UHGV virus genome: UHGV-1353889
DNA: 49,011 bases
Source of the DNA: a virus
Direction: 5' to 3' (one strand)
Position 1 is the first letter of the stretch, and each line of letters begins with the position of its first letter. The position numbers were made by a program, and so were the translations under genes. The notes below the pieces were generated by a model. It did no database searches, was not told the DNA's origin, and was given only the letters and a program-made list of their open reading frames with translations. Shown one piece after another: positions 1 through 44,878 of this stretch.

Positions 1-120
1 AGGCTTTGTGCTCTTCGATAGTTGTTAAGGCGGATCACTCTACCTTCTCATCAAGCCAATCCGCCCACCACTGCATCATTTCTCTGCGCTTATCGAGATA
101 CTGAGCATGGTTGTAAATTC
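1..120. repeat. Left copy of 120-bp direct repeat (putative att-derived); overlaps 3' end of the integrase gene
   Basis: 118/120 identical to 40241-40360 (differences at 56 and 60); sequences diverge immediately after position 120/40360. Confidence 0.8.
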
Positions 121-1228
121 CACGCACAGAACCGCCGTTGGCATGTGCTAGTTGCACTTCAATAGCATCAGCGGGCCATTCGTGCTCGTTCATAATCGTG
201 CTGAATTCATGCCTGAATCCGTGACCGCTTTCCAGACCCTCATAGCCAATTTGTTTGATCACAAGCAATACCGCGTTCTCGCAGATTGGCTTCTTCTTAT
301 CGTTGCGCCCGGCAAAAACAAATTCTGATACTGGTTTAGTGATGGAGCTTAGCGTAGTGAGAAGTTCAACCACCTGGTCTGACATAGGAACAACATGAAT
401 CTTGCGGCCCTTCATCACACTGGCGTCGATAGTGATAATCCTGTTTTCAAAATCGACGTTCTTCCATTGCATGGAACGAAGCTCTTTCGTTCTTAGGGCT
501 GTGTAGCGTAAAACTTTGGTCGCAATGAGCGATACGATGCTTCCTGAAAATGTTGCCAGTGCTTTGTTGAATGCAGGGATCTGGTCTGCTGGAAGAAACG
601 GGAAGTTCTTCTTGCGGTATCCTTTCATGGCGTCTGCAAGGTCAGGTGCCGGGTTATATTTAGCCCTACCAGTAACAATAGCGTAACGGAAAACCTCGCC
701 GCATCTTCTGCGTGCTTTGTTGGCTCGCTCCATTGCGCCGCGATCTTCAAATCTGCGGATTACTTCCAGAAGTTGCATCGGCTCAATATCCTGAATTTCA
801 AGGCTGCCGATGATAGGTAAAATGTCGTCATCAAACATTTTGGCAAGTTCAGTTGCATAGCCTACTGACCAGACTTGCTTCTTGTGCTCGTACCATTCCT
901 TGTAAATCGCACTAAAGGAATTGTTGTTAGACGAAGCCTTTTTCGCCTTTACAGGATCGATGCCAACCGAGATGTCTTTCCTCGCGGTCCATGCTTTATC
1001 CCTTGCCTCCTGCAAAGTCATAAGCGGATATTTTCCGACGGTCAGGATTTTCTCCTTACCGTCAATCTTGTAGCGAAGCTGCCATACCTTTTTTCCGGAT
1101 ACAGGGACATAAAGGTACAGACCATTACCATCGAGTAGGCGGTATGGTTTTTCTTTCGGCTTTGCTGCTTCAATCTGCTTAACGGTGAGCATGGGTAAAA
1201 ATCCGGTGGGTAAAATTATTTTATCCAC
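35..1228 (-). CDS. int: Tyrosine recombinase / phage integrase (P4-like family)
   Basis: 397 aa; N-terminal arm-binding-like region, C-terminal HGFRHEFST ... VRGIYNHAQY catalytic signature (R-H-R-Y); terminal position in prophage. Confidence 0.9.
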   Translation of the reverse strand: MDKIILPTGFLPMLTVKQIEAAKPKEKPYRLLDGNGLYLYVPVSGKKVWQLRYKIDGKEKILTVGKYPLMTLQEARDKAWTARKDISVGIDPVKAKKASSNNNSFSAIYKEWYEHKKQVWSVGYATELAKMFDDDILPIIGSLEIQDIEPMQLLEVIRRFEDRGAMERANKARRRCGEVFRYAIVTGRAKYNPAPDLADAMKGYRKKNFPFLPADQIPAFNKALATFSGSIVSLIATKVLRYTALRTKELRSMQWKNVDFENRIITIDASVMKGRKIHVVPMSDQVVELLTTLSSITKPVSEFVFAGRNDKKKPICENAVLLVIKQIGYEGLESGHGFRHEFSTIMNEHEWPADAIEVQLAHANGGSVRGIYNHAQYLDKRREMMQWWADWLDEKVE

Positions 1229-1441
1229 TTTTTACCCGTCATGGAGTGCGGCTGTCAACGATCTGACGCGAACCATTACGAACTGTGAATCTACGGAAGG
1301 CTTGATATTCAGGGGATTTTGCGGACTGGTACGGATGGGAGCGAACTGATAAATGGTGTCCCCTGCAGACATCTACTTGAAGCAGCAGGGGATTGATTAA
1401 AATGGTGTTTTTTAGGTGTGAGAAATATTTTACCCGCTATT

Positions 1442-1642
1442 TTACCCATTGGCGCGGCTTAAGAGCTTATTTTTGAATTCACAATGGTCACGATATAACC
1501 ATCTTGCTCGACCGTGGATAACTTTGGCTTTAGGCAGGTCGCCGGACTTAATCCGGTCGTAGATGAAGGTTTTACCAAAGCCAGTATCAGCCATGATGAA
1601 TTTCAAATCAACCAGTGAATCAGGTTGTAGTTCGTGTTGCAT
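1442..1642 (-). CDS. AlpA/Xis-like small DNA-binding protein (putative excisionase or regulator)
   Basis: 66 aa, adjacent to integrase; helix-turn-helix-like segment ADTGFGKTFIYDRIKSG typical of AlpA-family proteins. Confidence 0.5.
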   Translation of the reverse strand: MQHELQPDSLVDLKFIMADTGFGKTFIYDRIKSGDLPKAKVIHGRARWLYRDHCEFKNKLLSRANG

Positions 1643-1773
1643 GAGTGCTATCTCCGAATAGGGAATCGAACCTGCAAATCAGGCAATAAAAAACCGCCAT
1701 CAGGCGGCTTGGTGTTCTTTCAGTTCTTCAATTCGAATATTGGTTACATTGTTTTAATATATGAATAAATAAA

Positions 1774-1986
1774 TTAGCTTTTTTCGTTGCCTTCGCGTTC
1801 TTTATTAATTTTAACAAACTCGTTTTTACCACGCTCTCCAAATGCGTCTTTAGAGTCGTTGTATCCGCAATCGCAGCACACATAATCACCAGACCATCCA
1901 CGCATTGTTTTTTCTTTTGCAATATTTCCAGAACCGCATTTTGGACAAGACATATCACTACCTCCAAAGCATGAGTGAGATGACAA
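1774..1986 (-). CDS. Small zinc-ribbon protein (hypothetical)
   Basis: 70 aa with CPKCGSG ... CCDCGY four-Cys arrangement; the overlapping 1728..2111 ORF is judged spurious. Confidence 0.45.
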   Translation of the reverse strand: MSSHSCFGGSDMSCPKCGSGNIAKEKTMRGWSGDYVCCDCGYNDSKDAFGERGKNEFVKINKEREGNEKS

Positions 1987-2049
1987 CGTAACATTGATTG
2001 GAGATTAACAATAGATTGCTGATGTAAAAGATATGTATAAGCTTCGCTT

Positions 2050-2664
2050 TCAAAGTGGAGGCTCTGGTAGCGGCATCCAGTGTGACGGCTCACATACCCC
2101 CTCAACACCATTCATGTAAAAGAATTGAAATAACCCTTTACCTTTGTGAAACCCTACCATCTGCTCTTTTGTGTCTGAGCAATAAACCAAAACATCTTCT
2201 TCGCTTGGCATTCGCTCACTACAGCTTATCCAACCATCCGGAGTTACCGGAGAGTTGCCGGGTTCTTTAATGTGCAAGCGAGGCTCACCATCTTTTGGTT
2301 CAGGCCACTGGCGCTTCATGTTGATCTTCAATTTATCTTCCATAGCAGCGGTAATTTCAGCATCACTGATACCAGCACGGCGCTGTGCATCCCACAACAG
2401 GAACTGCATATCAGCCCACTCGCTGAGATCGTCAGGTTCGGCTGCGGCTTCCAGAGCCTCTTTTGAGAGATGTTTCAGCGGACCAATGGGGCCAACGCAG
2501 CCAAATGTTGAGTCAGACCATTTGGCATGCTCGTGGCGAATCTGTTCGCGTTCCAGTGATGCCAGTGCAATTCGTGCCAGTTCCATTTGTTCGCCACGAG
2601 TAAGCCCGTTTTCAAGCGGATCTTTAATGAACAATTCAATACGTTCTTTGGTAATAGTGGTCAT
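2050..2664 (-). CDS. Early-left accessory protein, DUF551-like C-terminus
   Basis: 204 aa; N-terminus MTTITKER shared with element 2 ORF 42479..42985; C-terminal HWMPLPEPP motif as I recall for DUF551. Confidence 0.5.
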   Translation of the reverse strand: MTTITKERIELFIKDPLENGLTRGEQMELARIALASLEREQIRHEHAKWSDSTFGCVGPIGPLKHLSKEALEAAAEPDDLSEWADMQFLLWDAQRRAGISDAEITAAMEDKLKINMKRQWPEPKDGEPRLHIKEPGNSPVTPDGWISCSERMPSEEDVLVYCSDTKEQMVGFHKGKGLFQFFYMNGVEGVCEPSHWMPLPEPPL

Positions 2665-2666
2665 GG

Positions 2667-2858
2667 CTATTTCACCTTAATCTCAACATTTCGCAGTTTT
2701 AGCTCCACTGGCAGGTCTGACTTTCCGGTTAAAGCTAATGCGAGATTTTCTGGAGTAATGAGAGCTGTTATTGTTTTCCCCATCGCCAGACGAATAATCA
2801 TTCGTATCTCGCGATCGTCACATGCTCCCGGTCGAACAATTGAGATTTGTCCGTTCAT
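2667..2858 (-). CDS. Hypothetical protein
   Basis: 63-aa ORF tightly packed (3-bp spacing) in minus-strand early-left operon. Confidence 0.35.
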   Translation of the reverse strand: MNGQISIVRPGACDDREIRMIIRLAMGKTITALITPENLALALTGKSDLPVELKLRNVEIKVK

Positions 2859-2859
2859 C

Positions 2860-3111
2860 TCACTCTCCTTTGATGCGAATGCCAGCGGCGCGGATTGCAG
2901 CGATGACCTCAGAAACTTTGTATGCCATTACCGTTTGGTAATCCTCGTGAAAATCTGTTCGATGAAGCATGCTGCTACGTTCTGGGAGCGATATTTCCCG
3001 TGCTTCCAGTTCTGCAATGCGCTTTTTTGCTGCTTCCAGCTCGTCCAGCAGTGTCAGCACGGTAGCCGGATTGGCTGCGGCGATGAATTCAGCATTGGCC
3101 TGCTGTTCCAT
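2860..3111 (-). CDS. Ea22-like protein, C-terminal portion (possibly remnant of a longer gene)
   Basis: 83 aa; KKRIAELEAREI coiled-coil and terminal GIRIKGE shared with element 2 ORF 43193..43807; the in-frame upstream extension lacks a start codon. Confidence 0.45.
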   Translation of the reverse strand: MEQQANAEFIAAANPATVLTLLDELEAAKKRIAELEAREISLPERSSMLHRTDFHEDYQTVMAYKVSEVIAAIRAAGIRIKGE

Positions 3112-3289
3112 TTGGAAATCTTCATCGAAACCGCTTTCTGGATGCGCTCCTTCAATTCTGCAAATAGGAATATATCCAGCAGCCTCGCGATGAATTAGCG
3201 CATCATCACCATCAAATCGGCCCTCTCCATATTCGAGCGATCACTCGCCACACGTTGCTTTTTCTGCCTTAGCACGCAGTGCCTGATAA

Positions 3290-3544
3290 TCAATCTGGCT
3301 CACTGGTTGCCTCCTGCTTTTCTGCCTTCAACACCATGCGAGAACCATCATCCAGCTCCCGCGCGATCTCACCACCTTCAGCCATGACCAGTCGCCACAC
3401 CAATTGAGCAGCCTCATTGGTAACATCACGACCTGGATCATTGCCAACGCGCATACGTCCACCTTCAACATCGCGCATTTTTGCCAGCATGATAGTTTTT
3501 GATAGCGGTGAAAAACCAAGCTGTAGTCGTGCTGAATTACTCAC
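3290..3544 (-). CDS. Hypothetical early protein (probable GTG start overlapping upstream stop)
   Basis: Track ORF 3290..3565; the more likely start is GTG at 3542-3544 preceded by GGAGG, overlapping the stop of the 3541..3708 ORF. Confidence 0.4.
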
Positions 3545-3708
3545 TGGTTGCCTCCTTTGCGCCACATCGCATTCAGATATTTGTTTTGATTTACTGATGG
3601 AAAAGAATTTCTCTTAAGTAATTCCTCTCTCGATGGCATTGGCTTTACGCGTTGGCGAATAATCATTTCTGCCGGAAGAATGCCGGGATTGTATGCAAGT
3701 CCTCTCAT
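3541..3708 (-). CDS. Small conserved protein (55 aa), hypothetical
   Basis: Manual translation [55 protein letters not shown]; near-identical copy at 44091..44258; below the 60-aa cutoff of the ORF track. Confidence 0.45.
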
Positions 3709-3724
3709 GGTAAATTCCTCTTTG

Positions 3725-4039
3725 TTAATTTATTCGTATGCCTGTTCTCTCTTCATCGAGTTTTTTTAGCTTGTATCGCATAGCTCTCACTGAATAAATT
3801 GAGCGGCAGGTTGCAATTGCTATTTCTTCTGCGGAGAACTTACCGAAAAGTGATACTTCGGCTCTTGTCCAGCGTCTTCCACGAAGTCGGCTAACAATGT
3901 CAGCGCCAATCCTTGTTGCTTTCGCCATTACTGCTTTTTCAGTCCTTTCCAGTTTTTCAGCGATAACTTCAACTGGCATTGTCGCCGCTACTTCGCGTAA
4001 GAAATCGACTTCCCATTTCTCCCAAGGAGTCTTTTTCAT
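3725..4039 (-). CDS. Conserved phage protein, putative DNA-binding (two HTH-like segments)
   Basis: 104 aa; near-identical paralogue at 44553..44867. Confidence 0.45.
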
Positions 4040-4050
4040 AGGCGATACCG

Positions 4051-4539
4051 TTATTTGATAAGAAGTGAAGGTTTCCCAACTTTGAGTTGAGCACCGGGGA
4101 TATTTATTCCTGCTTTTAGTTGGTGTTTGATTGCCAGTTTGTCGGCTTTAATTGTCGTTTCGAACTCAACGTATTCAGGAGGAAGGGCGCTTGAGTCGAT
4201 GATTTCTACAGTTTCTGACGGTTTGCGGATTGTTACCTGGTGAATACCTGCTCGAATCTTTTTCTTTCCAACCATTTCAAGCGATGACGCTATATACGTC
4301 ATAATGCTATCAATCTTATTTTGAATTACTGCTGCTCTTTCATTCAGTGACTTTGCCTCTTCCTTGAGGCGTTCAGCATAACCAGACTCATTTTTAATGA
4401 TGGCAAGAAGTTGCTCTATTTTATCGGTAAATTCTCCTTCCATGCCTTCTATTGTGTCAGCAATCATCTCTGGTTCTAAATCTGAATCCATCAATTTTGC
4501 GTATTCATTGGCAATTTCATACAGTTTGCTCACTGGCAA
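4051..4539 (-). CDS. Gp157-like protein (Sipho_Gp157 family, tentative)
   Basis: 162 aa acidic coiled-coil protein directly downstream of the RecT-family gene, the usual partner position; identical copy at 44879..45367. Confidence 0.5.
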   Translation of the reverse strand: MPVSKLYEIANEYAKLMDSDLEPEMIADTIEGMEGEFTDKIEQLLAIIKNESGYAERLKEEAKSLNERAAVIQNKIDSIMTYIASSLEMVGKKKIRAGIHQVTIRKPSETVEIIDSSALPPEYVEFETTIKADKLAIKHQLKAGINIPGAQLKVGKPSLLIK

Positions 4540-5428
4540 CCTCCAGTTTCGCTTTGCATTCTATGTAAATGGCTTGTACGTTCTGCTGCAATTTCATTCC
4601 AGATGTCAGGCGATATGCTTCTGCAAAATATCGCTTCAAATCATCCATGTTTTCTGCCTGAGCCATTTCATCACAAAGAAGTTGTGCTTTATCCGTTATT
4701 TCCTGCTGGCGTTTCCGTTCATCTTCGCGGATATCTTCCTCTGATTTGTGCGGCATAACTGGTTCAGTCCACACACCTTCTTCTTCGTTTAGTACGTGAA
4801 TAGCACTATCAAGACGTGATGCCTTAGGCCAATACTTGCTTGCACGCTTTACGACCGTCTTTCGCGCCATCTCATTCCAGTGATTTACCCATGGTCCTTT
4901 ATCGCTGAATGCCGCCTTGCTTGTTTTCCTTACAGCCTCAATTTCAGCCAGACTCATCTCTTCCGTTAGATAATCACCTGCTGGCGTCTTAACTGTGCAG
5001 TAAACGCCAACGATATCACCACGATCACCGAAGGCGTTGTATTTATGGGTTGGTGCTTTATCAAGCCCGTTTGACTCATAGGTATCGTTAGCATGAACAA
5101 GTTTTGCCTGACCCCATGAGATAACACCAGACTCCATTGCAATATGGAGCAATCCCATATAGCTGATATCAAGGCAAACCATGCCGTCGCGCGGAACCAG
5201 ATAAGCCAGTTTGCTAGCCGGGTTTAAGGTGATGCCGATCGCCGCAACATTGATGATGGCGTTCTGTGCGCTGGTTGGATTTGCCAGTGCCGTTTTAGCC
5301 AGGTAATCATTTTTCTGGAAATACTGAATTGCAAACTGGCTTTCCTTAGCCCATGTCACCGTCTGTTCAGTCAATGCTCCGCAGAATAACTGCTCCTGCT
5401 GTTTAACGAATTCAACGATATTGCTCAT
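4517..5428 (-). CDS. RecT-family single-strand annealing recombinase
   Basis: 303 aa; segment GPWVNHWNEMARKTVVKRASKYWP parallels the RecT core GPWVTHWEEMAKKTAIRRLFKYLP; identical copy at 45345..46256. Confidence 0.75.
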   Translation of the reverse strand: MSNIVEFVKQQEQLFCGALTEQTVTWAKESQFAIQYFQKNDYLAKTALANPTSAQNAIINVAAIGITLNPASKLAYLVPRDGMVCLDISYMGLLHIAMESGVISWGQAKLVHANDTYESNGLDKAPTHKYNAFGDRGDIVGVYCTVKTPAGDYLTEEMSLAEIEAVRKTSKAAFSDKGPWVNHWNEMARKTVVKRASKYWPKASRLDSAIHVLNEEEGVWTEPVMPHKSEEDIREDERKRQQEITDKAQLLCDEMAQAENMDDLKRYFAEAYRLTSGMKLQQNVQAIYIECKAKLEVASEQTV

Positions 5429-5736
5429 GCTGCTTCTCCATAAATGTGTCTGCGTTTGAATATTGCGAAGGCATATTCAGCCTTAACTCTTTCGGTTATT
5501 GCATCCCAGAACCATTCAGCGGCTTTTTCCTGATAGTTACAGTCATCATCTTCCAGCCAGTCGATAGCGTCCTTAGTGTGTTCATCTGGTTTATATGAGC
5601 GAAGCATTTCGCTTATTGGGTCGCAACGTTTGCAGAGACGATCAACTTCACTGTTGATTCGTTCGTAATCTTCATCAGTAAAACTTGCGATAATTTGCGA
5701 TATTTCACGCTTATCATTCAGAGTCAGAATCATCAT
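5425..5736 (-). CDS. Hypothetical early protein
   Basis: 103 aa, start overlaps RecT-family gene stop; copy at 46253..46564 with one substitution. Confidence 0.45.
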   Translation of the reverse strand: MMILTLNDKREISQIIASFTDEDYERINSEVDRLCKRCDPISEMLRSYKPDEHTKDAIDWLEDDDCNYQEKAAEWFWDAITERVKAEYAFAIFKRRHIYGEAA

Positions 5737-5817
5737 CTTTCTCCTGTTCTTTGTGCTGATTGAGCATTTTGTTCATCTGACGAATGAATTCTTCGTCTGA
5801 CCAGTTATCTGTAAAAC

Positions 5818-5988
5818 TCATGGGCGGCCTTGTTGTTTCAAAATATCCCAAAGCTTTTCGAGCAAGCTTTTCATTCTTGGTTGTTTAAAGTCTGCTCCGG
5901 TTAAAATATTTTTTCGTGAATGCTGTACCGATAAAATCGGGTTGAAAGGGCGAACCGATGCCGCCCCTGCAATAGCGAACTGTTGCAT
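5818..5988 (-). CDS. Small hypothetical protein (56 aa)
   Basis: ATG at 5986-5988 preceded by AAGGAG; the track's longer 5818..6093 ORF is probably over-extended. Confidence 0.35.
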   Translation of the reverse strand: MQQFAIAGAASVRPFNPILSVQHSRKNILTGADFKQPRMKSLLEKLWDILKQQGRP

Positions 5989-6018
5989 AGGATGCTCCTT
6001 CTGTTTGATTGCATAACG

Positions 6019-6221
6019 AAAACGCCTCGAGTGAAGCGTTATTGGTATGCATATAAAAAGGCCCTCACACTGGAGGGCAAAGAAGATTTCCAATAATCAG
6101 AACAAGTCGGCTCCTGTTTGGTTACGAGCGACATTGCTCCGTGTATTCACTCGTTGGAATGAATACACAGTGCAGTGTTTATTCTGTTGTTTATGCCAAA
6201 AGAAGGCCGACTATGCGGCCT
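6019..6221 (-). terminator. Cluster of hairpins including two intrinsic terminators (tL-like region of the leftward operon)
   Basis: Minus-strand hairpins at 6204-6221 (AGGCCG..CGGCCT followed by U-run) and 6061-6078 (GCCCTC..GAGGGC followed by U5), plus further hairpins at 6019-6038 and 6144-6170. Confidence 0.5.
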
Positions 6222-11008: not shown

Positions 11009-12381
11009 GACAGGATATCGAAGCGAGCGTTATCGGTGGCCTGCTGATTGGTGGATTAACTCCAACCGCCAGCGACGTTCTGGCAACACTGGAGCCGGAA
11101 GCGTTTTCAATTCCGCTCTACCGGAAAGCCTTCGAGGTTATCCGCAAGCAGGCGCGAAACAGAAACCTAATCGACGCGCTGATGGTTGCCGAGGCGTGCG
11201 GAGAGGAGCATTTCACGTCAATCCTGATGACCAGCAAAAACTGCCCGAGTGCCGCAAACCTGAAGGGATATGCCGGAATGGTCGCGGATAACTATCACCG
11301 CCGTCTGGTGCTGGAAATCATGGATGAAATGCGTGAACCAATTCAGAACGGAACCATCGATACATCGAGTCAGGCGATGGACGAGCTGGTAAAGCGTCTT
11401 TCAGCCATCAGAAAGCCCCGTGACGAGGTTAAACCTGTACGGTTAGGGGAAATCATCACCGACTACACTGACACGCTTGACAGGCGTCTGAGGAACGGAG
11501 AAGAGTCAGATACCCTGAAGACCGGAATCGAAGAACTTGACGCCATCACCGGAGGGATGAACGCAGAAGACCTGGTGATTATCGCCGCTCGTCCTGGTAT
11601 GGGTAAAACCGAACTGGCGCTGAAGATTGCCGAAGGCGTTGCAAGCCGCGTTATTCCTGGTTCTGACGTCCGGCGCGGAGTGTTGATTTTCTCGATGGAA
11701 ATGAGCGCATTGCAGATTGCAGAGCGAAGCATTGCCAACGCCGGGAGGATGTCGGTTAGCGTACTGCGAAATCCTGCATCGATGGATGACGAAGGCTGGG
11801 CGCGTGTTGCTAACGGCATGAGTCAGCTTGCAGATTTGGATGTATGGGTAGTCGATGCCTCGCGGTTATCGGTCGAAGAAATACGCTCAATCGCAGAACG
11901 GCATAAACAGGAAAATCCAAACCTGTCACTAATCATGGCGGATTATCTTGGCCTGATTGAGAAGCCGAAAGCAGACCGCAACGACCTCGCAATTGCTCAC
12001 ATCTCCGGAAGCCTGAAGGCGATGGCGAAAGACCTGAAAACGCCTGTTATCTCCCTAAGTCAGCTTTCACGCGATGTTGAGAAGCGACCAAACAAACGCC
12101 CGACAAACGCAGATTTGCGTGATTCAGGAAGCATTGAACAGGACGCAGACTCAATCATCATGCTCTATCGGGAAGCAGTATATGACGAGAACAGTAGCGC
12201 CGCGCCATTTGCTGAAATCATCGTGACGAAAAACCGTTTTGGCTCGCTTGGTACGGTTTACCAGCGATTCTGCAACGGACACTTTGTTGCATGTGACCAG
12301 GATGAAGCCAGACAGATTTGCACAGCATCAAATGCACCTGCTGCGCGTGGCAGACGATATGCACAAGGGGCTGACGTATGA
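11005..12381 (+). CDS. Replicative DNA helicase, DnaB-like
   Basis: 458 aa; Walker [11 protein letters not shown], DnaB-type RecA-fold motifs ([20 protein letters not shown]); start overlaps O-like gene stop. Confidence 0.85.
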
Positions 12382-12406
12382 CCATCTACGTCACTGAGCT
12401 AATAAA

Positions 12407-12438
12407 AGGCCTGCTGGTAATCGCAGGCCTTTTTATTT
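12407..12438 (+). terminator. Intrinsic terminator after helicase gene
   Basis: Hairpin AGGCCTGCTGGTAATCGCAGGCCT followed by TTTTATTT. Confidence 0.6.
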
Positions 12439-12453
12439 GGGGGAGAGTAAATC

Positions 12454-12660
12454 GTGGTTGAGTTGATTTTCTCTGCATTGAGGCTTCTCGGTGCTCTGTG
12501 GATGGTGGCGACGTTCATTGTGGTTGCTGGCTGTTTTGTCCGGTTGGTAGGCGAAGGTAAAGACCTGGGGAATATGCTTTTAGGTAGCATTTTCCTGTGG
12601 GGGATTATCGGTGTTATGCCTGTTGTCGTAGCAAAAATGGCGTGGCGTTTTGTGAGTTGA
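12454..12660 (+). CDS. Small hydrophobic (membrane) protein
   Basis: 68 aa, two predicted hydrophobic helices. Confidence 0.4.
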   Translation: MVELIFSALRLLGALWMVATFIVVAGCFVRLVGEGKDLGNMLLGSIFLWGIIGVMPVVVAKMAWRFVS

Positions 12661-12667
12661 GGTAACG

Positions 12668-12934
12668 ATGAAGATTACACGTTTACGCCACTTAACTAAC
12701 AACCCAGCACGCTGTTGGAGAGGAATGATGAGTACATTGGCTCAATTGATTAATGCAGACCTGGAAGAGTCAGGCGCACGGCATTATCGCTACTGGAAAG
12801 CCTCAAGACTTCCGATTATAGAGCGATACAATCGCAGGCCTAAGCCAAAGAGAAGCCCGCGAGACAGGGTGCTTAAGCGTCTGATGGGCATAAGCATGTC
12901 ACAGTTTACTAATTTCACCTGGTTCAAGCGGTGA
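12668..12934 (+). CDS. Hypothetical protein
   Basis: 88-aa ORF in nin-proximal region. Confidence 0.35.
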   Translation: MKITRLRHLTNNPARCWRGMMSTLAQLINADLEESGARHYRYWKASRLPIIERYNRRPKPKRSPRDRVLKRLMGISMSQFTNFTWFKR

Positions 12935-13181
12935 TGGAGAGGAATATGGACGAATCAAGAAAGCAGTTTGAAGAGTGGTTTAAAAACAAATTTATGAGGA
13001 AAACATCCGCACTGCTGGAGTCAAAGTGAAGGAGTGAGTATGAGCGCATACGAAGAAATCATGTTAGCCCTGCGATTCTTTTTCGGTGTGGAAGAAGATG
13101 AGAACGTAAATGAGATTATCGGGCAAGACCATGACCCGATAGGGACTATTGCAGCTGCACTTGACGATTACAGGAGCGTAA

Positions 13182-13625
13182 ATGGTGAGGAAACTAACGT
13201 TTGAACTAAGAAGCCCCATCCATCAGCAGAACGCCATTCAAGCTATCCAGCAAATTCTTCCAGACCCAACCAAACCAATCGTAGTAACCATTCAGGAACG
13301 CAACCGCAGCTTAGACCAGAATCGGAAGCTTTGGGCTTGCCTTGGTGACGTCTCTCGTCAGGTTGAATGGCATGGTCGCTGGCTGGATGCAGAAAGCTGG
13401 AAGTGTGTGTTTACCGCAGCATTAAAGCAGCAGGACGTTGTTCCTAACCTTGCCGGGAATGGCTTTGTTGTAATAGGCCAGTCAACCAGCAGGATGCGTG
13501 TAAACGAATTTGCGGAGCTATTAGAGCTTATACAGGCATTCGGTACAGAGCGTGGCGTTAAATGGTCAGACGAAGCGAGACTGGCTCTGGAGTGGAAAGC
13601 GAGATGGGGAGATCGGGCTGCATGA
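13182..13625 (+). CDS. ninB: NinB (Orf-family recombination mediator)
   Basis: 147 aa, near-identical to lambda NinB as I recall it. Confidence 0.9.
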   Translation: MVRKLTFELRSPIHQQNAIQAIQQILPDPTKPIVVTIQERNRSLDQNRKLWACLGDVSRQVEWHGRWLDAESWKCVFTAALKQQDVVPNLAGNGFVVIGQSTSRMRVNEFAELLELIQAFGTERGVKWSDEARLALEWKARWGDRAA

Positions 13626-14149
13626 CTATCAAATCAAATACGCCAGCACACGACAAGGACTGCTGGCAAACGCCGCTTTGGCTTTTTGATGCACTGGATA
13701 TTGAGTTTGGATTCTGGCTGGATTCGGCAGCGAGCGACAAAAATGCTCTGTGTGCTCACTGGCTAACTGAGGCCGACGACGCGCTCAATTCTGAGTGGGT
13801 AAGCCACGGTGCAATCTGGAATAACCCACCGTACAGCAATATCAGGCCGTGGGTGGAAAAAGCCGCTGAGCAGTGCATACAACAGCGACAGACGGTAGTT
13901 ATGCTTGTGCCAGAGGATATGTCAGTCGGATGGTTCAGCAAGGCTCTGGAGAGTGTCGACGAAGTTCGCATTATCACTGATGGACGGATTAATTTTATCG
14001 AACCATCGACAGGGTTGGAGAAGAAGGGAAACAGCAAAGGCTCCATGCTGCTGATTTGGCGACCGTTCATCAGTCCTCGACGGATGTTTACTACCGTATC
14101 CAAAGCGGCATTGATGGCGATCGGGCAGGGCGTCAGGAGGGCGGCATGA
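13622..14149 (+). CDS. DNA N6-adenine methyltransferase (phage Dam-type, orphan)
   Basis: ATG at 13622 overlapping ninB stop; NPPY catalytic motif (IWNNPPYSN); no adjacent restriction endonuclease. Confidence 0.7.
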
Positions 14150-14322
14150 GGCGACAGCGACGAAGTTTCACCGACATCATCTGCGAAAACTGCAAATACC
14201 TTCCAACGAAACGCACCAGAAATAAACCCAAGCCAATCCCAAAAGAATCTGACGTAAAAACCTTCAACTACACGGCTCACCTGTGGGATATCCGGTGGCT
14301 TAGACATCGTGCGAGGAAATGA
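14146..14322 (+). CDS. ninE: NinE
   Basis: 58 aa, [52 protein letters not shown] matches lambda NinE. Confidence 0.85.
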
Positions 14323-14684
14323 CAATGGATTATTCACAGTTAAGTGATTTTGAAATTAACGTGGCGGTATTCGAAGCTATTCATAACGGATCACCGGATT
14401 ACAAAGAAGGTGAGAATGGCGATATGGTGTTTGTCTCATTTGAGGGAGACATTGTAAACGGAGACGCAGTTGAAGTAGAAGTTGAGCGCGGTTCCTTTAA
14501 CCCATGCGCAAACCCAGCAGACGCATGGCCGATTATTGAAAAATACAGGATTAGCATTATCAATCTCGATGAAGACGAGTGGGGTGCACGCGGTGTGGCC
14601 TACTGTAAATCTAAGCGAGCTATACATGAAAATCCCCTCCGCGCCGCCATGATTGTCTTTCTCATGATGCAGAGAATCCAATAA
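14319..14684 (+). CDS. Nin-region protein (NinX/DUF2591-like, tentative)
   Basis: 121 aa between ninE and ninF. Confidence 0.4.
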
Positions 14685-14860
14685 TGCTTAGCCCATCCCA
14701 ATCCATTCAATACCAGAAAGAAAGCGTCGAGAGAGCTTTAACGTGCGCTAACTGCGGTCAGAAGCTGCATGTGCTGGAAGTTCACGTGTGCTCCGATTGC
14801 TGCGCAGAACTGATGAGCGATCCGAATAGCTCAATGTACGAGGAAGAAGATGATGGCTAA
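14684..14860 (+). CDS. ninF: NinF
   Basis: 58 aa manual translation [58 protein letters not shown] matches lambda NinF; below track cutoff. Confidence 0.8.
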
Positions 14861-15464
14861 ACCAGCGCGAAGACGATGTAAAAACGATGAATGTCGGGAA
14901 TGGTTTCACCCTGCATTCGCTAATCAGTGGTGGTGCTCTCCAGAGTGTGGAACAAAGATAGCACTCGAGCGACGAAGCAAAGAACGCGAAAAAGCGGAAA
15001 AAGCAGCAGAGAAGAAACGACGACGAGAGGAGCAGAAACAGAAAGATAAACTTAAGATTCGAAAACTCGCCTTAAAGCCCCGCAGTTACTGGATTAAACA
15101 AGCCCAACAAGCCGTAAACGCCTTCATCAGAGAAAGAGACCGCGACTTACCATGTATCTCGTGCGGAACGCTCACGTCTGCTCAGTGGGATGCCGGACAT
15201 TACCGGACAACTGCTGCGGCACCTCAACTCCGATTTGATGAACGCAATATTCACAAGCAATGCGTGGTGTGCAACCAGCACAAAAGCGGAAATCTCGTTC
15301 CGTATCGCGTCGAACTGATTAATCGCATCGGGCAGGAAGCAGTAGACGAAATCGAATTAAACCATAACCGCCATCGCTGGACTGTCGAAGAGTGCAGGGC
15401 CATCAAGGCGGAGTATCAGCAGAAACTCAAAGACCTGCGAAACAGCAGAAGTGAGGCCGCATGA
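14853..15464 (+). CDS. ninG: NinG (Rap) recombination-associated endonuclease
   Basis: 203 aa from the second Met of track ORF 14850..15464; near-identical to lambda NinG as I recall it. Confidence 0.9.
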
Positions 15465-15507
15465 CGTTCTCAGTAAAAACCATTCCAGATCACAAGGGAG
15501 AAGGCGC

Positions 15508-15996
15508 ATGGGCATAAGAGAACTAAACCTCACCAAAGAACAGCACGAGTGGCTGAATGGCTGGCTTGAACTGTGGGGCGCATGGGTTTATTCAGGTCGT
15601 CTGGAAAAGCGCATGAGCAGCGTAATAGCTAAGTTCATGGAGAGCGTAGAGCCGGGAAGAGTTATGACAAGGCCAATGTGTAATGATGATGATGGAATGT
15701 TGATTTCTCAGGTCGTCGATTCCGTCATGTACATTGACAAGAAAGCCTTTGGCATCCTCCTCAGCTACTACGCCCACGGCTCTTCCAAGCACGCCATTGC
15801 ATCTTACTATCATCGCGTCGCAAGACCTCGCAAGATGTTATGCCGGGGCGGCGGGCGCATTCAAAAACCATCGCTCGCAACCTGTCGACGGGAAGTTGAC
15901 GAAATCATCAATGCCTCGTTGTTTATGATTTACCCGGTTCTGGATAGTGCGTTTAAAAACCGGAAACGTGTAGAGAAAATTAAACATATAGCATAG
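15508..15996 (+). CDS. Late-gene antiterminator Q (phage 21/82-type family)
   Basis: 162 aa from internal Met of track ORF; WGAW and CxDDD motifs resemble Q21-family proteins and differ from lambda Q. Confidence 0.6.
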   Translation: MGIRELNLTKEQHEWLNGWLELWGAWVYSGRLEKRMSSVIAKFMESVEPGRVMTRPMCNDDDGMLISQVVDSVMYIDKKAFGILLSYYAHGSSKHAIASYYHRVARPRKMLCRGGGRIQKPSLATCRREVDEIINASLFMIYPVLDSAFKNRKRVEKIKHIA

Positions 15997-16001
15997 AACG
16001 T

Positions 16002-16087
16002 GTTGACATCATTGAGCAAATGAGCAACACTATTCGCATAAGCTGCCGTTAGTGACTCTTAAGTTGCAACGGTGGCTTTTTTTATTT
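16002..16087 (+). promoter_or_regulatory. Putative pR' late promoter and tR'-like terminator
   Basis: TTGACA at 16002-16007; hairpin CCGTT..AACGG followed by a T7 run near 16050-16085. Confidence 0.4.
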
Positions 16088-16162
16088 GGGTCAGTCGTAT
16101 AAAGGTCATTACGGAAGGCTGCTAACCTTCTTATCGTGGTTCGAGTCCACGCTGTCCCGCCA
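16088..16162 (+). tRNA. tRNA gene (manual fold; anticodon loop CUGCUAA gives GCU; isotype uncertain)
   Basis: Acceptor GGGTCAG/CTGTCCC (one U-U mismatch), T-arm CGTGG-TTCGAGT-CCACG, 3' G-CCA; 4-nt variable loop is atypical for a GCU tRNA. Confidence 0.5.
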
Positions 16163-16167
16163 AATAT

Positions 16168-16243
16168 GCTGGTTTAGCTCCAATGGTAGAGCGGTCGCCT
16201 TGTAAGCGAATGGGTAGCGGTTCAAGTCCGTTAACCAGCACCA
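16168..16243 (+). tRNA. tRNA gene, predicted anticodon UGU (Thr) by manual cloverleaf
   Basis: 76 nt; perfect 7-bp acceptor stem GCTGGTT/AACCAGC, D-arm TAGCTCCAATGGTAGAGC, anticodon loop CTTGTAA, T-loop TTCAAGT, discriminator A plus CCA. Confidence 0.65.
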
Positions 16244-16485
16244 TAACTGAGCCGTAGCCACTGGATGTCCTGAATTCATCAGTGATAGTTATGCTGCGGT
16301 CTTCTACACATGACCTTCGTGAAAGCGGGTGGCAAGAGGCTGCGCTAACAACCTCCTGCCGTTTTGCCCGTGCATATCGGTCACGAACAAATCTGATTAC
16401 TAAACACAGTAGCCTGGATTTGTTCTATCAGTAATAGACCTTATTCCTAATTAAATAGAGCAAATCCCCTTATTGGGGGTAAGAC

Positions 16486-16809
16486 ATGAAGATGCCAGAA
16501 AAACATGACCTGTTAGCCGCCATTCTCGCGGCAAAGGAACAAGGCATCGGGGCAATCCTTGCGTTTGCAATGGCGTACCTTCGCGGCAGATATAATGGCG
16601 GTGCGTTTACAAAAACAGTAATCGACGCAACGATGTGCGCCATTATCGCCTGGTTCATTCGTGACCTTCTCGACTTCGCCGGACTAAGTAGCAATCTCGC
16701 TTATATAACGAGCGTGTTCATCGGCTACATCGGTACTGACTCGATTGGTTCGCTTATCAAACGCTTCGCTGCTAAAAAAGCCGGAGTAGAAGATGGTGGA
16801 AATCAATAA
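16486..16809 (+). CDS. S: Holin S (class I)
   Basis: 107 aa, near-identical to lambda S including the dual-start MKMPEK. Confidence 0.9.
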
Positions 16810-17269
16810 TCAACGTAAGGCGTTCCTCGATATGCTGGCGTGGTCAGAGGGAACTGATAACGGACGTCAGAAAACCAGAAATCATGGTTATGACGTCATT
16901 GTAGGGGGAGAGCTATTCACTGATTACTCCGATCACCCTCGCAAACTTGTCACGCTAAACCCAAAACTCAAATCAACAGCCGCCGGACGTTACCAGCTTC
17001 TTTCCCGTTGGTGGGACGCCTACCGCAAGCAGCTTGGCCTGAAAGACTTCTCCCCCAAAAGTCAGGACGCTGTTGCACTGCAGCAGATTAAAGAGCGCGG
17101 CGCTTTGCCGATGATTGACCGCGGTGATATTCGTCAGGCTATCGACCGTTGCAGCAATATCTGGGCTTCACTGCCGGGCGCTGGTTATGGTCAGTTCGAG
17201 CATAAGGCTGACAGCCTGATTGCAAAATTCAAAGAAGCAGGCGGAACGGTCAGAGAGATTGAGGTATGA
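16793..17269 (+). CDS. R: Endolysin R (lytic transglycosylase)
   Basis: 158 aa, near-identical to lambda R as I recall it. Confidence 0.9.
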
Positions 17270-17733
17270 ACAGAGTAACCGCGATTATCTCCGCTCTGGT
17301 TATCTGCATCATCGTCTGCCTGTCATGGGCTGTTAATCATTACCGTGATAACGCCATCGCCTACAAAGAACAGCGAGATAAAAAAGTCAGTGAGCTGAAG
17401 CAGGCGACCGCCACCATTACTGACATGCAGCAGCGCCAGCGTTCTGCTGATGCACTCGATGCTAAATACACGAAGGAGTTAGCTGATGCGAAAGCTGAAA
17501 ATGATGCTCTTCGGCGCAAGCTTGATAATGGTGGTCGGGTGTTCGTCAAAGGAAAATGCCCTGTGCCATCCTCAGACGAAACCTCCAGCGCCTCCGGCAT
17601 GGGCAATGATGCCACCGTCGAACTCTCTCCAGTTGCTGGACGAAACGTTCTCGGTATCCGGGACGGAATTATCCGCGACCAAACAGCACTAAGAACGCTT
17701 CAGGAATACATCAGGACGCAATGCCTTCGATGA
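17266..17733 (+). CDS. Rz: Spanin inner-membrane subunit Rz
   Basis: 155 aa, [30 protein letters not shown] matches lambda Rz N-terminus. Confidence 0.85.
17486..17692 (+). CDS. Rz1: Spanin outer-membrane lipoprotein Rz1 (embedded in Rz, +1 frame)
   Basis: Lipobox LIMVVGC and proline-rich PPAPPAW; fully embedded in Rz. Confidence 0.7.
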
Positions 17734-35683: not shown

Positions 35684-35862
35684 ATAAAGAAGATGGCTTT
35701 AAGTGCTCCTTCTGCGGAAAGCCTCAGCATGAATGTGCAATGTTGATTCGCGCTAAAGCAGAGATATTTATCTGTAGTGGTTGTGTATCTCTTTGCGTTG
35801 AAGCGATGGGGAAAGAGTTAAATTCTAGAAAAACAATGTTAGATGTGAACATAAAACAGTGA
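35680..35862 (+). CDS. ClpX N-terminal zinc-binding-domain-like protein (ZBD only)
   Basis: 60 aa; [10 protein letters not shown] ... [10 protein letters not shown] parallels ClpX ZBD CSFCGKSQHE ... YICDECVDLC; ATGA overlap with arc stop. Confidence 0.6.
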
Positions 35863-35924
35863 AGCCCCAACTGCGGGAACAGTCAGGGCTTCGGTTGTCA
35901 GTAAATCCGTGGAGAAAAACCAAC

Positions 35925-36827
35925 ATGAATAGTATAGCAATTTTAGAAGCAGTGAACACCTCTTACGTACCATTCAACGGTCAGCAAATTATCACCGCCA
36001 TGGCTGCCGGAGTTGCATATGTTGCGATGAAGCCAATCGTTGAAAACCTCGGAATGAGCTGGGGTACTCAGCAACAAAAACTTATGAAACAACTAGATAA
36101 GTTCAAATGTATTCATATGAATATGGTTGCTGCTGATGGAAAGCTTCGTAAGCTACTCTGCCTTCCTTTGAAGAAGTTAAATGGATGGCTGTTCAGCATC
36201 AACCCTGAGAAAGTTCGTGCTGACATCCGTGATAAACTGATTCAGTACCAGGAAGAATGCTTTACTGTACTGCATGACTACTGGACAAAGGGAAAGGCAG
36301 AAAATGCACGTAAGAAAACATCTGTTGATGACAGGACTCCGCTTCGTGATGCTGTAAATATGCTAGTCAGCAAAAAGCATCTAATGTACCCAGAAGCTTA
36401 TGCAATGATTCATCAGCGTTTCAATGTGGAAAGTATTGAAGAGCTTGATGCATCTCAGATACCGCAAGCCGTAGAGTACATCCACAGGGTAGTGCTTGAA
36501 GGTGAATTTATCGGCAAACAAGAGAAGAAAACCAACGAGTTTTCTGCAAAAGAAGCAAACAGCCTTGTATGGTTATGGGATTATGCCAACCGTTCACAGG
36601 CATTATTCCGCGAACTGTATCCGGCATTAAAACAAATTCAATCGAACTATTCCGGCAGATGCTACGACTACGGTCATGAGTTCTCGTATGTTATCGGAAT
36701 GGCGAGGGACGTTTTAATCAATCACTCACGAGATGTTGATATCAATGAGCCAGACGGACCAACGAATCTTTCCGCATGGATGAGACTTAAGAATAAAGAA
36801 TTACCTCCTTCAATACATAACTACTGA
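35925..36827 (+). CDS. ant: Antirepressor Ant
   Basis: 300 aa from ATG at 35925 (GGAGA RBS), same length as P22 Ant; follows arc in immI arrangement. Confidence 0.65.
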
Positions 36828-40240: not shown

Positions 40241-40360
40241 AGGCTTTGTGCTCTTCGATAGTTGTTAAGGCGGATCACTCTACCTTCTCATCAATCCAGT
40301 CCGCCCACCACTGCATCATTTCTCTGCGCTTATCGAGATACTGAGCATGGTTGTAAATTC
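40241..40360. repeat. Right copy of 120-bp direct repeat (integrase 3'-end fragment)
   Basis: 118/120 identical to 1-120; encodes last ~28 codons of integrase with an in-frame stop just upstream. Confidence 0.8.
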
Positions 40361-40429
40361 AACTAACCCAGTCCGTTGACAAAAAATTAGCGCAAGAGGA
40401 CAAAAAATCACCTTGCGCTAATGCTCTGC

Positions 40430-40660
40430 CTCAGGTCACTAATACTATCTAAGTAGTTGATTCATAGTGACTGGATATGTTGTGTTTTGTAGTATTATGC
40501 AGTCTATTATTTAGACTAAACCCTTCATAACATATTGATATTTACAGTGTTTTCTGTTTCTCGTTCAGCTTTTTTATACTAAGTTGGCATTATAAAAAAG
40601 CATTGCTTATCAATTTGTTGCAACGAACAGGTCACTATCAGTCAAAATAAAATCATTATT
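40430..40660. other. Lambda-type attachment site with P-arm-like, core (GCTTTTTTATACTAA at 40568-40582) and P'-arm sequences, i.e. attP-like rather than attL
   Basis: Core 15-mer exact; right flank matches lambda P' arm into int; left flank resembles lambda P arm (CAGGTCACTAATAC ... TTCTCGTTCAGC). Confidence 0.8.
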
Positions 40661-41726
40661 TGATTTCAATTTTGTCCCACTCCCTGCCTCTGTCATCACG
40701 ATACTGTGATGCCATGGTGTCCGACTTATGCCCGAGAAGATGTTGAGCAAACTTATCGCTTATCTGCTTCTCATAGAGTCTTGCAGACAAACTGCGCAAC
40801 TCGTGAAAGGTAGGCGGATCCCCTTCGAAGGAAAGACCTGATGCTTTTCGTGCGCGCATAAAATACCTTGATACTGTGCCGGATGAAAGCGGTTCACGAC
40901 GAGTAGATGCAATTATGGTTTCTCCGCCAAGAATCTCTTTGCATTTATCAAGTGTTTCCTTCATTGATATCCCGAGAGCATCAACATGCAATGCTGTTGG
41001 GATGGCAATTTTTACGCCTGTTTTGCTTTGCTCGACATAAAGATATCCATCTACGATATCAGACCACTTCATTTCGCATAAATCACCAACTCGTTGCCCG
41101 GTAACAACAGCCAGTTCCATTGCAAGTCTTAGCCAATATGGTGATGATTCTGCTGCTTGATAAATTTTCAGGTATTCGTCAGCCGTAAGTCTTGATCTCC
41201 TTACCTCTGATTTTGCTGCGCGAGTGGCAGCGACCGGGTTTGTTGTTATATGGCCTTCAGCTATTGCCTCTCGGAATGCATCGCTCAGTGTTGATCTGAT
41301 TAACTTGGCTGACGCAGCCTTGCCCTCGTCTATGTATCCATTGAGCATTGCCGCAATTTCTTTTGTGGTGATGTCTTCAAGTGGAGCATCAGGCAGACCC
41401 CTCCTTATTGCTTTAATTTTGCTCATGTAATTTATGAGTGTCTTCTGCTTGATTCCTCTGCTGGCGAGGATTTTTTCGTAGCGATCAAGCCATGAATGTA
41501 ACGTAACAGAATTATCACTGTTGATTCTCGCTGTCAGAGGCTTGTGTTTGTGTCCTGAAAATAACTCAATGTTGGCCTGTATAGCTTCAGTGATTGCGAT
41601 TCGCCTGTCTCGGCCTAATCCAAACTCTTTACCCGTCCTTGGGTCCCTGTAGCAGTAATATCCATTGTTTCTTATATAAAGGTTAGGGGGTAAATCCCGG
41701 CGCTCATGACTTCGCCTTCTTCCCAT
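40656..41726 (-). CDS. int: Integrase (lambda Int)
   Basis: 356 aa, near-identical to lambda Int as I recall it. Confidence 0.95.
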   Translation of the reverse strand: MGRRRSHERRDLPPNLYIRNNGYYCYRDPRTGKEFGLGRDRRIAITEAIQANIELFSGHKHKPLTARINSDNSVTLHSWLDRYEKILASRGIKQKTLINYMSKIKAIRRGLPDAPLEDITTKEIAAMLNGYIDEGKAASAKLIRSTLSDAFREAIAEGHITTNPVAATRAAKSEVRRSRLTADEYLKIYQAAESSPYWLRLAMELAVVTGQRVGDLCEMKWSDIVDGYLYVEQSKTGVKIAIPTALHVDALGISMKETLDKCKEILGGETIIASTRREPLSSGTVSRYFMRARKASGLSFEGDPPTFHELRSLSARLYEKQISDKFAQHLLGHKSDTMASQYRDDRGREWDKIEIK

Positions 41727-41922
41727 TTCTGATCCTCTTCAAAAGGCTACCTGTTACTGGTCGATTTAAGTCAACCTTTACCGCTGATTCGTGGAACAGA
41801 TACTCTCTTCCATCCTTAACCGGAGGAGGGAATATCCTGCACTCGCGTACCCATCGACGAACTGTTTCAAGGCTTCTTGGGCGTCGCTGGCGTGCGTTCC
41901 ACTCCTGAAGTGTCAAGTACAT
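41704..41922 (-). CDS. xis: Excisionase (lambda Xis)
   Basis: 72 aa, MYLTLQEWNARQRRPRSLETVRRWVRECRIFPPPVKDGREYLFHESAVKVDLNRP matches lambda Xis. Confidence 0.95.
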   Translation of the reverse strand: MYLTLQEWNARQRRPRSLETVRRWVRECRIFPPPVKDGREYLFHESAVKVDLNRPVTGSLLKRIRNGKKAKS

Positions 41923-41961
41923 CGCAAAGTCTCCGCAATTACACGCAAGAAAAAACCGCCA

Positions 41962-42129
41962 TCAGGCGGTTTGGTGTTCTTTCAGTTCTTCAATTCGAAT
42001 ATTGGTTACGTCTGCATGTGCTATCTGCGGCCACAGCATCCAGTGGTCATAGCAGTCGTTGATGTTCTCCGCTTCGATAACTCTGTTGAATGGCTCTCCA
42101 TTCCATTCACCTGTGACTCGGAAGTGCAT
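41962..42129 (-). CDS. Small hypothetical protein (55 aa)
   Basis: Manual ORF MHFRVTGEWNGEPF ... NIRIEELKEHQTA; its 3' end plus terminator hairpin recurs as a start-less fragment at 1651-1740. Confidence 0.4.
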   Translation of the reverse strand: MHFRVTGEWNGEPFNRVIEAENINDCYDHWMLWPQIAHADVTNIRIEELKEHQTA

Positions 42130-42201
42130 TTATCATCTCCATAAAACAAAACCCGCCGTAGCGAGTTCAGATAAAAGAAATCCCCGCGAGTGCGAGGATT
42201 G

Positions 42202-42486
42202 TTATTTATTGCCGATATTCACCTTTATCGCGAACACCTTTACCGGTTTATCTCCGAAGTGCGGATGTGTGATTGTCTTGATTTCATACCCTTCATACGG
42301 GACGTCTATTCTGCGACTGGAGTCGTCGCGCTTCGGATATCCCTTTGTGATAATCAGGCGGTCATATTCCCGGAACATGATTCGCTTATTCCAGTAGTCA
42401 TTACACAGGCGATACTCTTCCGTCTTCTCTCCGCGAATCATGGCATCGAAGTATTCACCTTTAACGGCAAGTTGCAGGTTAGCCAC
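42202..42486 (-). CDS. ASCH/PUA-like (DUF3850-like) domain protein, tentative
   Basis: Probable GTG start at 42484-42486 with AAGGAG RBS; GEYFDAMIRGEKTEE resembles ASCH-domain N-terminal motif; track ORF 42202..42570 over-extended. Confidence 0.4.
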   Translation of the reverse strand: MANLQLAVKGEYFDAMIRGEKTEEYRLCNDYWNKRIMFREYDRLIITKGYPKRDDSSRRIDVPYEGYEIKTITHPHFGDKPVKVFAIKVNIGNK

Positions 42487-42985
42487 AGTTAACTCCTTGC
42501 TGTGTGGCGTCGAGTAATAAATCCCACAACCGCTGAGAGCAATTTCCGCATGTACAGCGTTGACCCACAACGTTTATCGCGTTGCTGATTTCCGGCGTTA
42601 CCTGTTTAGGAACCATAACCCAACCATCCGGAGTTACCGGATAGTTGCCATCCAGCGCGTTCAACTTGTAAGTCTGGCTTACAGGTTTGACACCGTGAAG
42701 CATGGCGGCGCGGTGACACCAGATAATCCAGCCCAGCGCCATATCCCATGCCATGTATTCTCTATCACCATTTTTTGCCCTGCGGCGATCTACAGATTCC
42801 CCGAAACGCTTCTCCATAAATAATTCATAGGCTGCCCGTTCATCCGATACTGCTGCCAGCGATGCCAGAGCAATTCGTGCCAGTTCTTCCGCTTCTTCTG
42901 CTGGCAGTACAACGTTGCTACCCGGCCCGTATGTTTCGCGCCACTGCTTGATTGTCAGCAGTCGCTCTTTGGTAATAGTGGTCAT
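42479..42985 (-). CDS. Early-left accessory protein, DUF551-like C-terminus
   Basis: 168 aa; shares MTTITKER N-terminus and YPVTPDGW motif with 2050..2664. Confidence 0.5.
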   Translation of the reverse strand: MTTITKERLLTIKQWRETYGPGSNVVLPAEEAEELARIALASLAAVSDERAAYELFMEKRFGESVDRRRAKNGDREYMAWDMALGWIIWCHRAAMLHGVKPVSQTYKLNALDGNYPVTPDGWVMVPKQVTPEISNAINVVGQRCTCGNCSQRLWDLLLDATQQGVNCG

Positions 42986-43191
42986 TTGTTAATCCTCAAA
43001 ACTTTATGCCCAGGCGCAAAAGCACGCGTTTTGTCTTTGCTTATTCGCCAGCCATCCTTGCGCGCCTCTTTTGCACAGCCAGCCCATGACGTACCTATAT
43101 ACTCACCGAAGTCTGGCACTGGATATACACCTTCCGTACACTGGCGGCAGTCACAATAGAGATGCATTGTGTAACTTGCAGCGATAGCCAT
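42982..43191 (-). CDS. Small Cys-rich hypothetical protein
   Basis: 69 aa from ATG at 43189-43191 (AAGGAG RBS, overlaps upstream stop); CDCRQC motif. Confidence 0.35.
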   Translation of the reverse strand: MAIAASYTMHLYCDCRQCTEGVYPVPDFGEYIGTSWAGCAKEARKDGWRISKDKTRAFAPGHKVLRINK

Positions 43192-43192
43192 A

Positions 43193-44536: not shown

Positions 44537-44552
44537 TGTTAATTACTCCATG

Positions 44553-44867: not shown

Positions 44868-44878
44868 AGGCGATACCG

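Follow-up and report, generated by a model that had tools for sequence, protein, structure and literature searches.

A pair of accessory tRNA genes, encoding tRNA-Asn(GUU) and tRNA-Thr(UGU), forms a late-leader module whose description goes back to phage 21 and Sf6. In phage 21, Sf6, SfI, ST64T, PS3, BTP1 and Kapi1 the pair occupies the same site, between the lysis genes and the tR' hairpin, which it follows immediately, and in phage 21 the tRNA-Asn begins at the base directly following the pR'/tR' leader. The SfI paper describes ACA, the codon read by the tRNA-Thr, as enriched, with a figure of 7.1% of Thr codons for S. flexneri, whereas Asn codon bias was reported as absent and the role of the tRNA-Asn was called unclear (PMC3636060). 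In a study of BTP1, two tRNA genes were set aside from the list of prophage genes with TPM over 100 (PMC7067206), which implies that the homologous tRNA pair of BTP1 also exceeded that threshold in lysogen cultures. The antisense RNA STnc6030 of BTP1, which had been considered as a neighbor of the tRNAs, was dropped, as it is antisense to the tailspike region (PMC7067206).

The window analyzed here is the whole 49,011-nt stretch of viral DNA catalogued as UHGV-1353889, to which all coordinates refer. It contains an intact late antiterminator gene Q of the phage-21 type (15508–15996, plus strand; 162 aa; PF06530, E = 8.8e-25), whose product is identical to phage 21 Q at 160 of 162 residues. Since positions 16000–16087 match phage 21 (OL657228) at every base of the alignment, the phage 21 annotations of pR', the Q-binding elements and tR' can be transferred by position. 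The late promoter pR' thereby falls at 16003–16038 (plus strand), with a -35 element TTGACA at 16003–16008, Q-binding elements at 16011–16026, a -10 element at 16026–16031 and a start site at about 16038. The late-leader terminator tR', annotated as such in both phage 21 and Sf6, occupies 16040–16087 (plus strand) as a hairpin with a predicted folding energy of -20.2 kcal/mol (z = -3.9), directly followed by UUUUUUU. A simple consensus promoter and terminator scan of 15900–16520 called none; support for pR' and tR' comes from the match with phage 21, where they are annotated, and from the predicted fold. Downstream of the tRNA genes, a non-coding leader (16244–16485, plus strand), 95–98% conserved in P22-like phages, separates the tRNA-Thr from a lysis cassette (16486–17733, plus strand), which comprises a lambda-S-type holin (16486–16809; PF05106), an endolysin (16793–17269) and Rz (17266–17733; PF03245). 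All three are full length, and the lengths of the lysis ORFs agree with Sf6 and related loci. Antisense transcription has been reported for this part of related phages: in the Kapi1 transcriptome a clear signal lies antisense to the tRNAs, and BTP1 has a similar one between the tRNAs and the holin gene (PMC12922286). A 56-aa ORF on the minus strand (16109–16279) lies wholly over both tRNA genes and is almost certainly spurious.

Run on the 49 kb window, ARAGORN called exactly two tRNA genes, tRNA 1 at 16088–16162 with anticodon GCT and tRNA 2 at 16168–16243 with anticodon TGT, both on the plus strand. Each is a full-length match to the Rfam tRNA model RF00005, with 54.8 bits (E = 3.6e-9) for tRNA 1 and 61.2 bits (E = 6.3e-11) for tRNA 2 in searches of the whole window; since both exceed the gathering score of 29 bits and form a cloverleaf, they belong to the tRNA family. 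A preliminary description made from the sequence had proposed two tRNA genes at 16088–16243, between Q and the lysis cassette, with these anticodons; ARAGORN and Rfam place both genes exactly there, and the flanks are likewise as described, with Q upstream and holin, endolysin and Rz downstream.

The same description had portrayed the first tRNA as atypical, its T arm and CCA being canonical and present but accompanied by a weak D stem, a U-U mismatch in the acceptor stem and a short variable loop. The cmscan alignment agrees in each respect. The non-standard pairs of tRNA 1 are both U.U, one at 4:69 and the other at 13:22 within the D stem, which holds just one G-C pair; the T arm reads CGUGG-UUCGAGU-CCACG, the CCA is encoded, the variable loop has 4 nt and the anticodon loop is CUGCUAA. 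These weak stems are family-wide traits rather than decay of the window copy, as U13.U22 is unpaired in all 31 haplotypes of the tRNA pair family and U4.U69 is mismatched in 29 of 31, the two exceptions having a G.U or U.G pair there. The predicted cloverleaf of tRNA 1 has the same energy, -21.6 kcal/mol, for the mutant and for the wild type. The second tRNA had been described as a clean cloverleaf with anticodon UGU, which holds for the anticodon and the generally good fold, except for one non-standard pair, G27.A43, at the top of the anticodon stem. Across relatives the tRNA-Thr shows compensatory double changes in 6 pairs, a pattern consistent with selection on its structure.

A megablast search of 16000–16330 against GenBank phages matched 93 records, among them phage 21, Sf6, SfI, BTP1, Kapi1, SPN9CC and HK446, in which the two genes are annotated as tRNA-Asn and tRNA-Thr, and about 370 complete E. 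coli genomes carry the pair as well. The window shares with phage 21 the Q-binding elements, promoter and terminator, and tRNA 1 likewise starts at the base right after the leader, so that position (after pR'/tR' and before the lysis genes) and homology of both tRNAs identify the pair as the known module. The anticodons fit it by half: the expected UGU is present in tRNA 2, while the first anticodon is GCU instead of GUU. tRNA 2 is identical to its SfI counterpart at 76 of 76 bases and to those of phage 21 and Sf6 at 75 of 76. tRNA 1 matches the tRNA-Asn of SfI, phage 21 and Sf6, which ARAGORN labels tRNA-Asn(GTT), at 74 of 75 bases, and the sole difference is a C in place of T at 16122 (plus strand), which is position 35, the central base of the anticodon at 16121–16123. 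All module members examined have U at this position and the window has C. With an anticodon of GCU and not GUU, tRNA 1 represents a mutant allele and is no typical member of the module; it reads as a tRNA-Asn body with a U35C change. That change explains why a serine anticodon stands on a body with a short variable loop, a combination that the preliminary description had rightly called abnormal; its suggestion that the tRNA is diverged does not survive the comparison, since anticodon base 35 is all that differs.

The host tRNA-Asn genes of E. coli (asnT/U/V/W) share with the wild-type phage tRNA the CUGUUAA anticodon loop, G73 and the T-loop, but the two are only about 62% identical. The phage tRNA begins with G1-C72 where the host has U1-A72, and unlike the host tRNA-Asn it carries the U4.U69 mismatch and the weak D stem. 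On this comparison, the phage tRNA-Asn is not a recent copy of the host gene.

The GCU allele has been found in the window alone among the collections searched. The 57-mer of the window centered on the GCT anticodon had no perfect match in 58 phage records, nor at 387 places in 369 E. coli records of complete genomes, whereas its GTT version was matched perfectly in 54 of 58 phage records and 314 of 374 E. coli records; a further 60 E. coli records have one or two other mismatches to the GTT 57-mer, and two of these were inspected. The exact GCT 40-mer was absent from 185,579 species-representative genomes (GTDB), IMG/VR and JGI metagenomes, and the GCT 24-mer from the GTDB species representatives and the JGI metagenomes, while at least 120 contigs of IMG/VR contain the GTT 40-mer. 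Scans of IMG/VR with degenerate patterns, in which position 34, 35 or 36 could be any other base, found no match. Unbiased evidence for invariance of the anticodon comes from the megablast counts and these degenerate-pattern scans, as the IMG/VR loci that were aligned had been chosen by the exact 40-mer at 16104–16143 and are invariant inside this stretch by construction.

The background of the allele is common. Apart from 16122, the 156-nt tRNA pair of the window equals a haplotype with 13 members. The nearest relative recovered, L148, is a Logan contig present in at least 20 sequencing runs, and over 12350–16305 it is identical to the window at 3954 of 3956 bases. One of the two differences is a synonymous AAA/AAG change in ninB (13562), and the other is the anticodon base 16122, at which L148 has T. 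On the right-hand side the closest relative is L145, with 9 differences in 3423 bases and again a GTT anticodon. The near-identity of these two GTT relatives indicates that U35C arose de novo and very recently on an otherwise widespread background. Each substitution has a chance of about 3/3956 of striking the anticodon, and one of the two differences in about 4 kb did so; a chance strike on the central anticodon base is thus improbable, which leaves room for sequencing error or for selection, as weighed below.

Exact-protein look-ups (KilA-N protein, TerL, NinG, NinX and Rz) returned no contig with the exact mosaic of the window, and several features of the surroundings can be noted. A sharp mosaic junction lies at about 16305, 62 nt 3' of the tRNA-Thr: leftward of it the window and L148 are 99.95% identical, and beyond it L148 continues into phage-21-type lysis genes, while the window follows the lambda-S-type lysis genes of L145-like sequences. 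The tRNA module sits at a recombination boundary. A second, related prophage-like region begins at about 40.3 kb (window 40241–49011 compared with 1–6221), with 98% identity between 1–120 and 40241–40360, 99.3% identity between 3705–5746 and 44533–46574, and a second integrase-sized ORF at 40656–41726 (minus strand); this suggests lambdoid/P22-like prophages arranged in tandem at one site. A full-length match to the sar RNA (RF00262, 87.7 bits) at 35858–35924 on the minus strand overlaps the start of an ant-like ORF (35859–36827), and this match to the P22 immI antisense RNA marks the element as P22-like.

A tRNA with anticodon GCU pairs with AGC and AGU, so reading of the Asn codons AAC and AAU is lost by base pairing alone; what the molecule might do instead depends on which synthetase, if any, accepts it. 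We compared both tRNAs with the identity sets given by Giege and Eriani (2023; PMC9976931), which derive from host tRNAs and in vitro work, so that residual charging by AsnRS or ArgRS is not quantifiable from sequence. The second tRNA presents no difficulty: of the bacterial Thr set (G1-C72, C2-G71, G4-C69, G5-C68, G35 and U36; PMC9976931), every element is present at 16168–16243. For Asn, the set consists of G34, U35, U36 and G73 (PMC9976931), of which tRNA 1 keeps G34, U36 and G73, and it should be a poor AsnRS substrate with U35, one of the four known determinants, replaced by C. For Arg, the set includes C35, U or G at 36, A or G at 73, and A20, which is called 'the main determinant' for E. 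coli ArgRS (PMC9976931). Here tRNA 1 has C35, U36 and G73, but its D-loop, aligned to the Rfam model as AAAGGUCA, has U at position 20, so that ArgRS would be expected to charge it poorly even though C35 and U36 fit. Outside Asn, Arg and Ser, the remaining bacterial identity sets are not matched either: charging with Ala is ruled out by G3-C70, with Cys or Gly by G73, and with Gln, Lys or Thr by C35. A genuine phage tRNA-Ser(GCU) isoacceptor, as the ARAGORN label would have it, agrees with the anticodon and with the G73, C72 and G2-C71 that are part of the bacterial Ser set. The same set, however, asks for a long variable arm, C11-G24 and R4-Y69 (PMC9976931), where tRNA 1 has a 4-nt variable loop, U11-A24 and U4.U69; SerRS should ignore a tRNA that lacks the long variable arm, and with a body 74/75 identical to tRNA-Asn the serine reading is effectively refuted. 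Taken against these sets, the GCU tRNA is most likely an orphan, uncharged or barely charged, and in effect a null allele.

A charged product would be of a different kind, namely an active missense tRNA, loaded with Asn through residual AsnRS activity or with Arg by ArgRS, which inserts these residues late in infection at the Ser codons AGC and AGU. In favor of such activity, tRNA 1 keeps three of the four determinants for Asn and as many for Arg, homologous genes are transcribed in BTP1, and the predicted fold is intact. The retained U36-A37 makes the t6A37 modification plausible. Yet tRNA 1 lacks a major element of both sets, namely U35 for AsnRS and A20 for ArgRS; AGY codons make up about 23 per 1000 prophage codons, with 142 in the late-gene ORFs counted, so that efficient misreading would damage the virion proteins of the phage itself; and the GCU allele has not spread. 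We regard this as quite unlikely, and the more elaborate proposal, in which a late-expressed tRNA charged with Asn or Arg serves as a natural phage-borne missense tRNA whose mistranslation of the serine codons AGC/AGU is deliberate or tolerable, or an uncharged one acts as a decoy against a tRNA-targeting defense, as very unlikely. An adaptive origin of the change, whether as escape from or decoy for an anticodon nuclease acting on QUN-anticodon tRNAs or as removal of a GTTAAC restriction site, seems to us highly improbable. Phage tRNAs have indeed been proposed to evade host anticodon nucleases through changes in the anticodon loop (PMC10264068), the substitution does destroy a GTTAAC site spanning the wild-type anticodon, and one anticodon hit in two substitutions is improbable by chance; but evasion that abolishes Asn decoding would defeat the supply of a tRNA-Asn, and hundreds of relatives show no recurrence. 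Restriction-site escape was rejected, as the prophage keeps nine other GTTAAC sites, of which one lies in the neighboring tRNA-Thr. More mundane is an error of sequencing or assembly, in which the true base at 16122 would be T and tRNA 1 an ordinary tRNA-Asn(GUU). The GCT allele has no second instance in any collection searched and falls on an otherwise invariant site; with only 2 of 3956 bases separating the window from a widespread contig, even a modest error rate is not negligible relative to divergence. Error is nevertheless an unlikely explanation, because T-to-C transitions are the commonest kind of real mutation, the region has no frameshifts or broken genes suggestive of poor assembly, 16122 lies outside any homopolymer, and the second site at which L148 differs shows an ordinary synonymous change.

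The explanation that we consider likely, then, is that tRNA 1 represents the accessory tRNA-Asn(GUU) belonging to the late-leader module of phage-21/Sf6/P22-like phages, altered by a recent T-to-C change at position 35 and most likely null. By homology, tRNA 1 would be co-transcribed from pR' with the tRNA-Thr(UGU), the lysis genes and the structural genes, and both tRNA and late-gene transcription would require Q antitermination at tR'; again by homology, the GCU RNA, keeping its cloverleaf, should be processed normally. The preliminary description had also wondered whether the tRNA might be suppressor-like or a pseudo-tRNA. A nonsense suppressor was rejected, as GCU is complementary to AGC/AGU and not to UAA, UAG or UGA, and 'suppressor-like' would apply only loosely, to the missense activity considered above. 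'Pseudo-tRNA' was rightly raised as a possibility, and the published identity sets speak against efficient AsnRS, SerRS or ArgRS charging, but the weak stems lend it no weight, being traits of the family.

A null allele would be tolerated, given a dispensable module and a host with tRNA-Asn genes of its own, of which the median number is four. Dispensability is apparent among related prophages with the same Q family that lack the tRNA pair and have another insert of about 190 nt at the site, and among relatives with 3'-truncated copies of the tRNA-Asn (L125, L105, L038 and L035), with G73U copies (L045 and L026), or with extra or alternative tRNAs, for example Gly-UCC. The prophage otherwise looks intact, Q being full length along with the lysis genes and every large structural gene, and U35C is thus a point lesion and not part of general prophage decay. 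The neighboring tRNA 2 is an ordinary tRNA-Thr(UGU), expected to supplement decoding of ACA, a codon that the phage uses heavily: ACA makes up 29% of Thr codons in the prophage (14.6 per 1000), and Asn usage is unremarkable. In E. coli, the ACA share of Thr codons is roughly 13–17%.

The alternative occupants of the site have features of their own. In L132, and also in L127, L137 and L141, the insert of about 190 nt replaces the tRNA pair. Its 131-nt core (4177–4307 in L132) is predicted to fold at -50.5 kcal/mol into a tRNA-like shape. This shape has an acceptor-like stem of 8–9 bp, a perfect T arm (GCCGG-UUCGAUU-CCGGC), a D-like arm and, at its center, a long arm. Neither ARAGORN nor Rfam recognizes the L132 core as a tRNA; once its threshold is lowered, ARAGORN suggests a tRNA-Ala interrupted by a 38-nt intron. 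Degenerate or rearranged modules were seen more widely, in L125 (E. coli EC100), L105, L038, L035, L045, L026, L090, L073, L030, L010 and L099; they include a 3'-truncated tRNA-Asn without tRNA-Thr, the G73U form, and a tRNA-Thr allele of recombinant or degenerate type with an additional tRNA-Gly(UCC) behind it.

What the locus holds is a known module with a private, probably inactivating point mutation, and nothing in the module itself is new; as the oddity reduces to this single change, its wider biological weight is small. It does carry a caution for annotation, since callers that rely on the anticodon alone would report a tRNA-Ser(GCU) where the body is that of a tRNA-Asn and cannot be a substrate of SerRS. 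If the source strain is available, the allele would also serve as a natural knockout, allowing an isogenic test of what the phage tRNA-Asn contributes to fitness.

Comparison with more distant systems places the mutant tRNA in perspective. Stx phages such as 933W carry an ileZ-argN-argO cluster between Q and the stx and lysis genes. These, too, are accessory tRNAs in a lambdoid late leader that are thought to supplement host-rare codons, a concept cited in the SfI paper (PMC3636060). The 933W-type cluster differs in encoding Ile and Arg tRNAs with other anticodons. The animal mitochondrial tRNA-Ser(GCU) likewise combines the anticodon GCU with the lack of a long variable arm (PMC9976931). It also lacks the D arm, is served by a specialized mitochondrial SerRS and has no homology to the tRNA of the window. 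To our knowledge, enterobacteria have no such enzyme. A further parallel is tRNA recruitment, reportedly described by Saks, Sampson and Abelson in 1998, in which an anticodon point mutation turned an E. coli tRNA-Arg(UCU) into a tRNA-Thr(UGU). There, as here, one base change in the anticodon reassigns a tRNA body to codons that specify a different amino acid. Recruitment, however, needs a new synthetase that reads the anticodon, which SerRS does not do, and the window tRNA would accordingly offer a clean natural example of the opposite outcome, in which an anticodon shift to an amino acid whose synthetase ignores the anticodon should yield an orphan tRNA.
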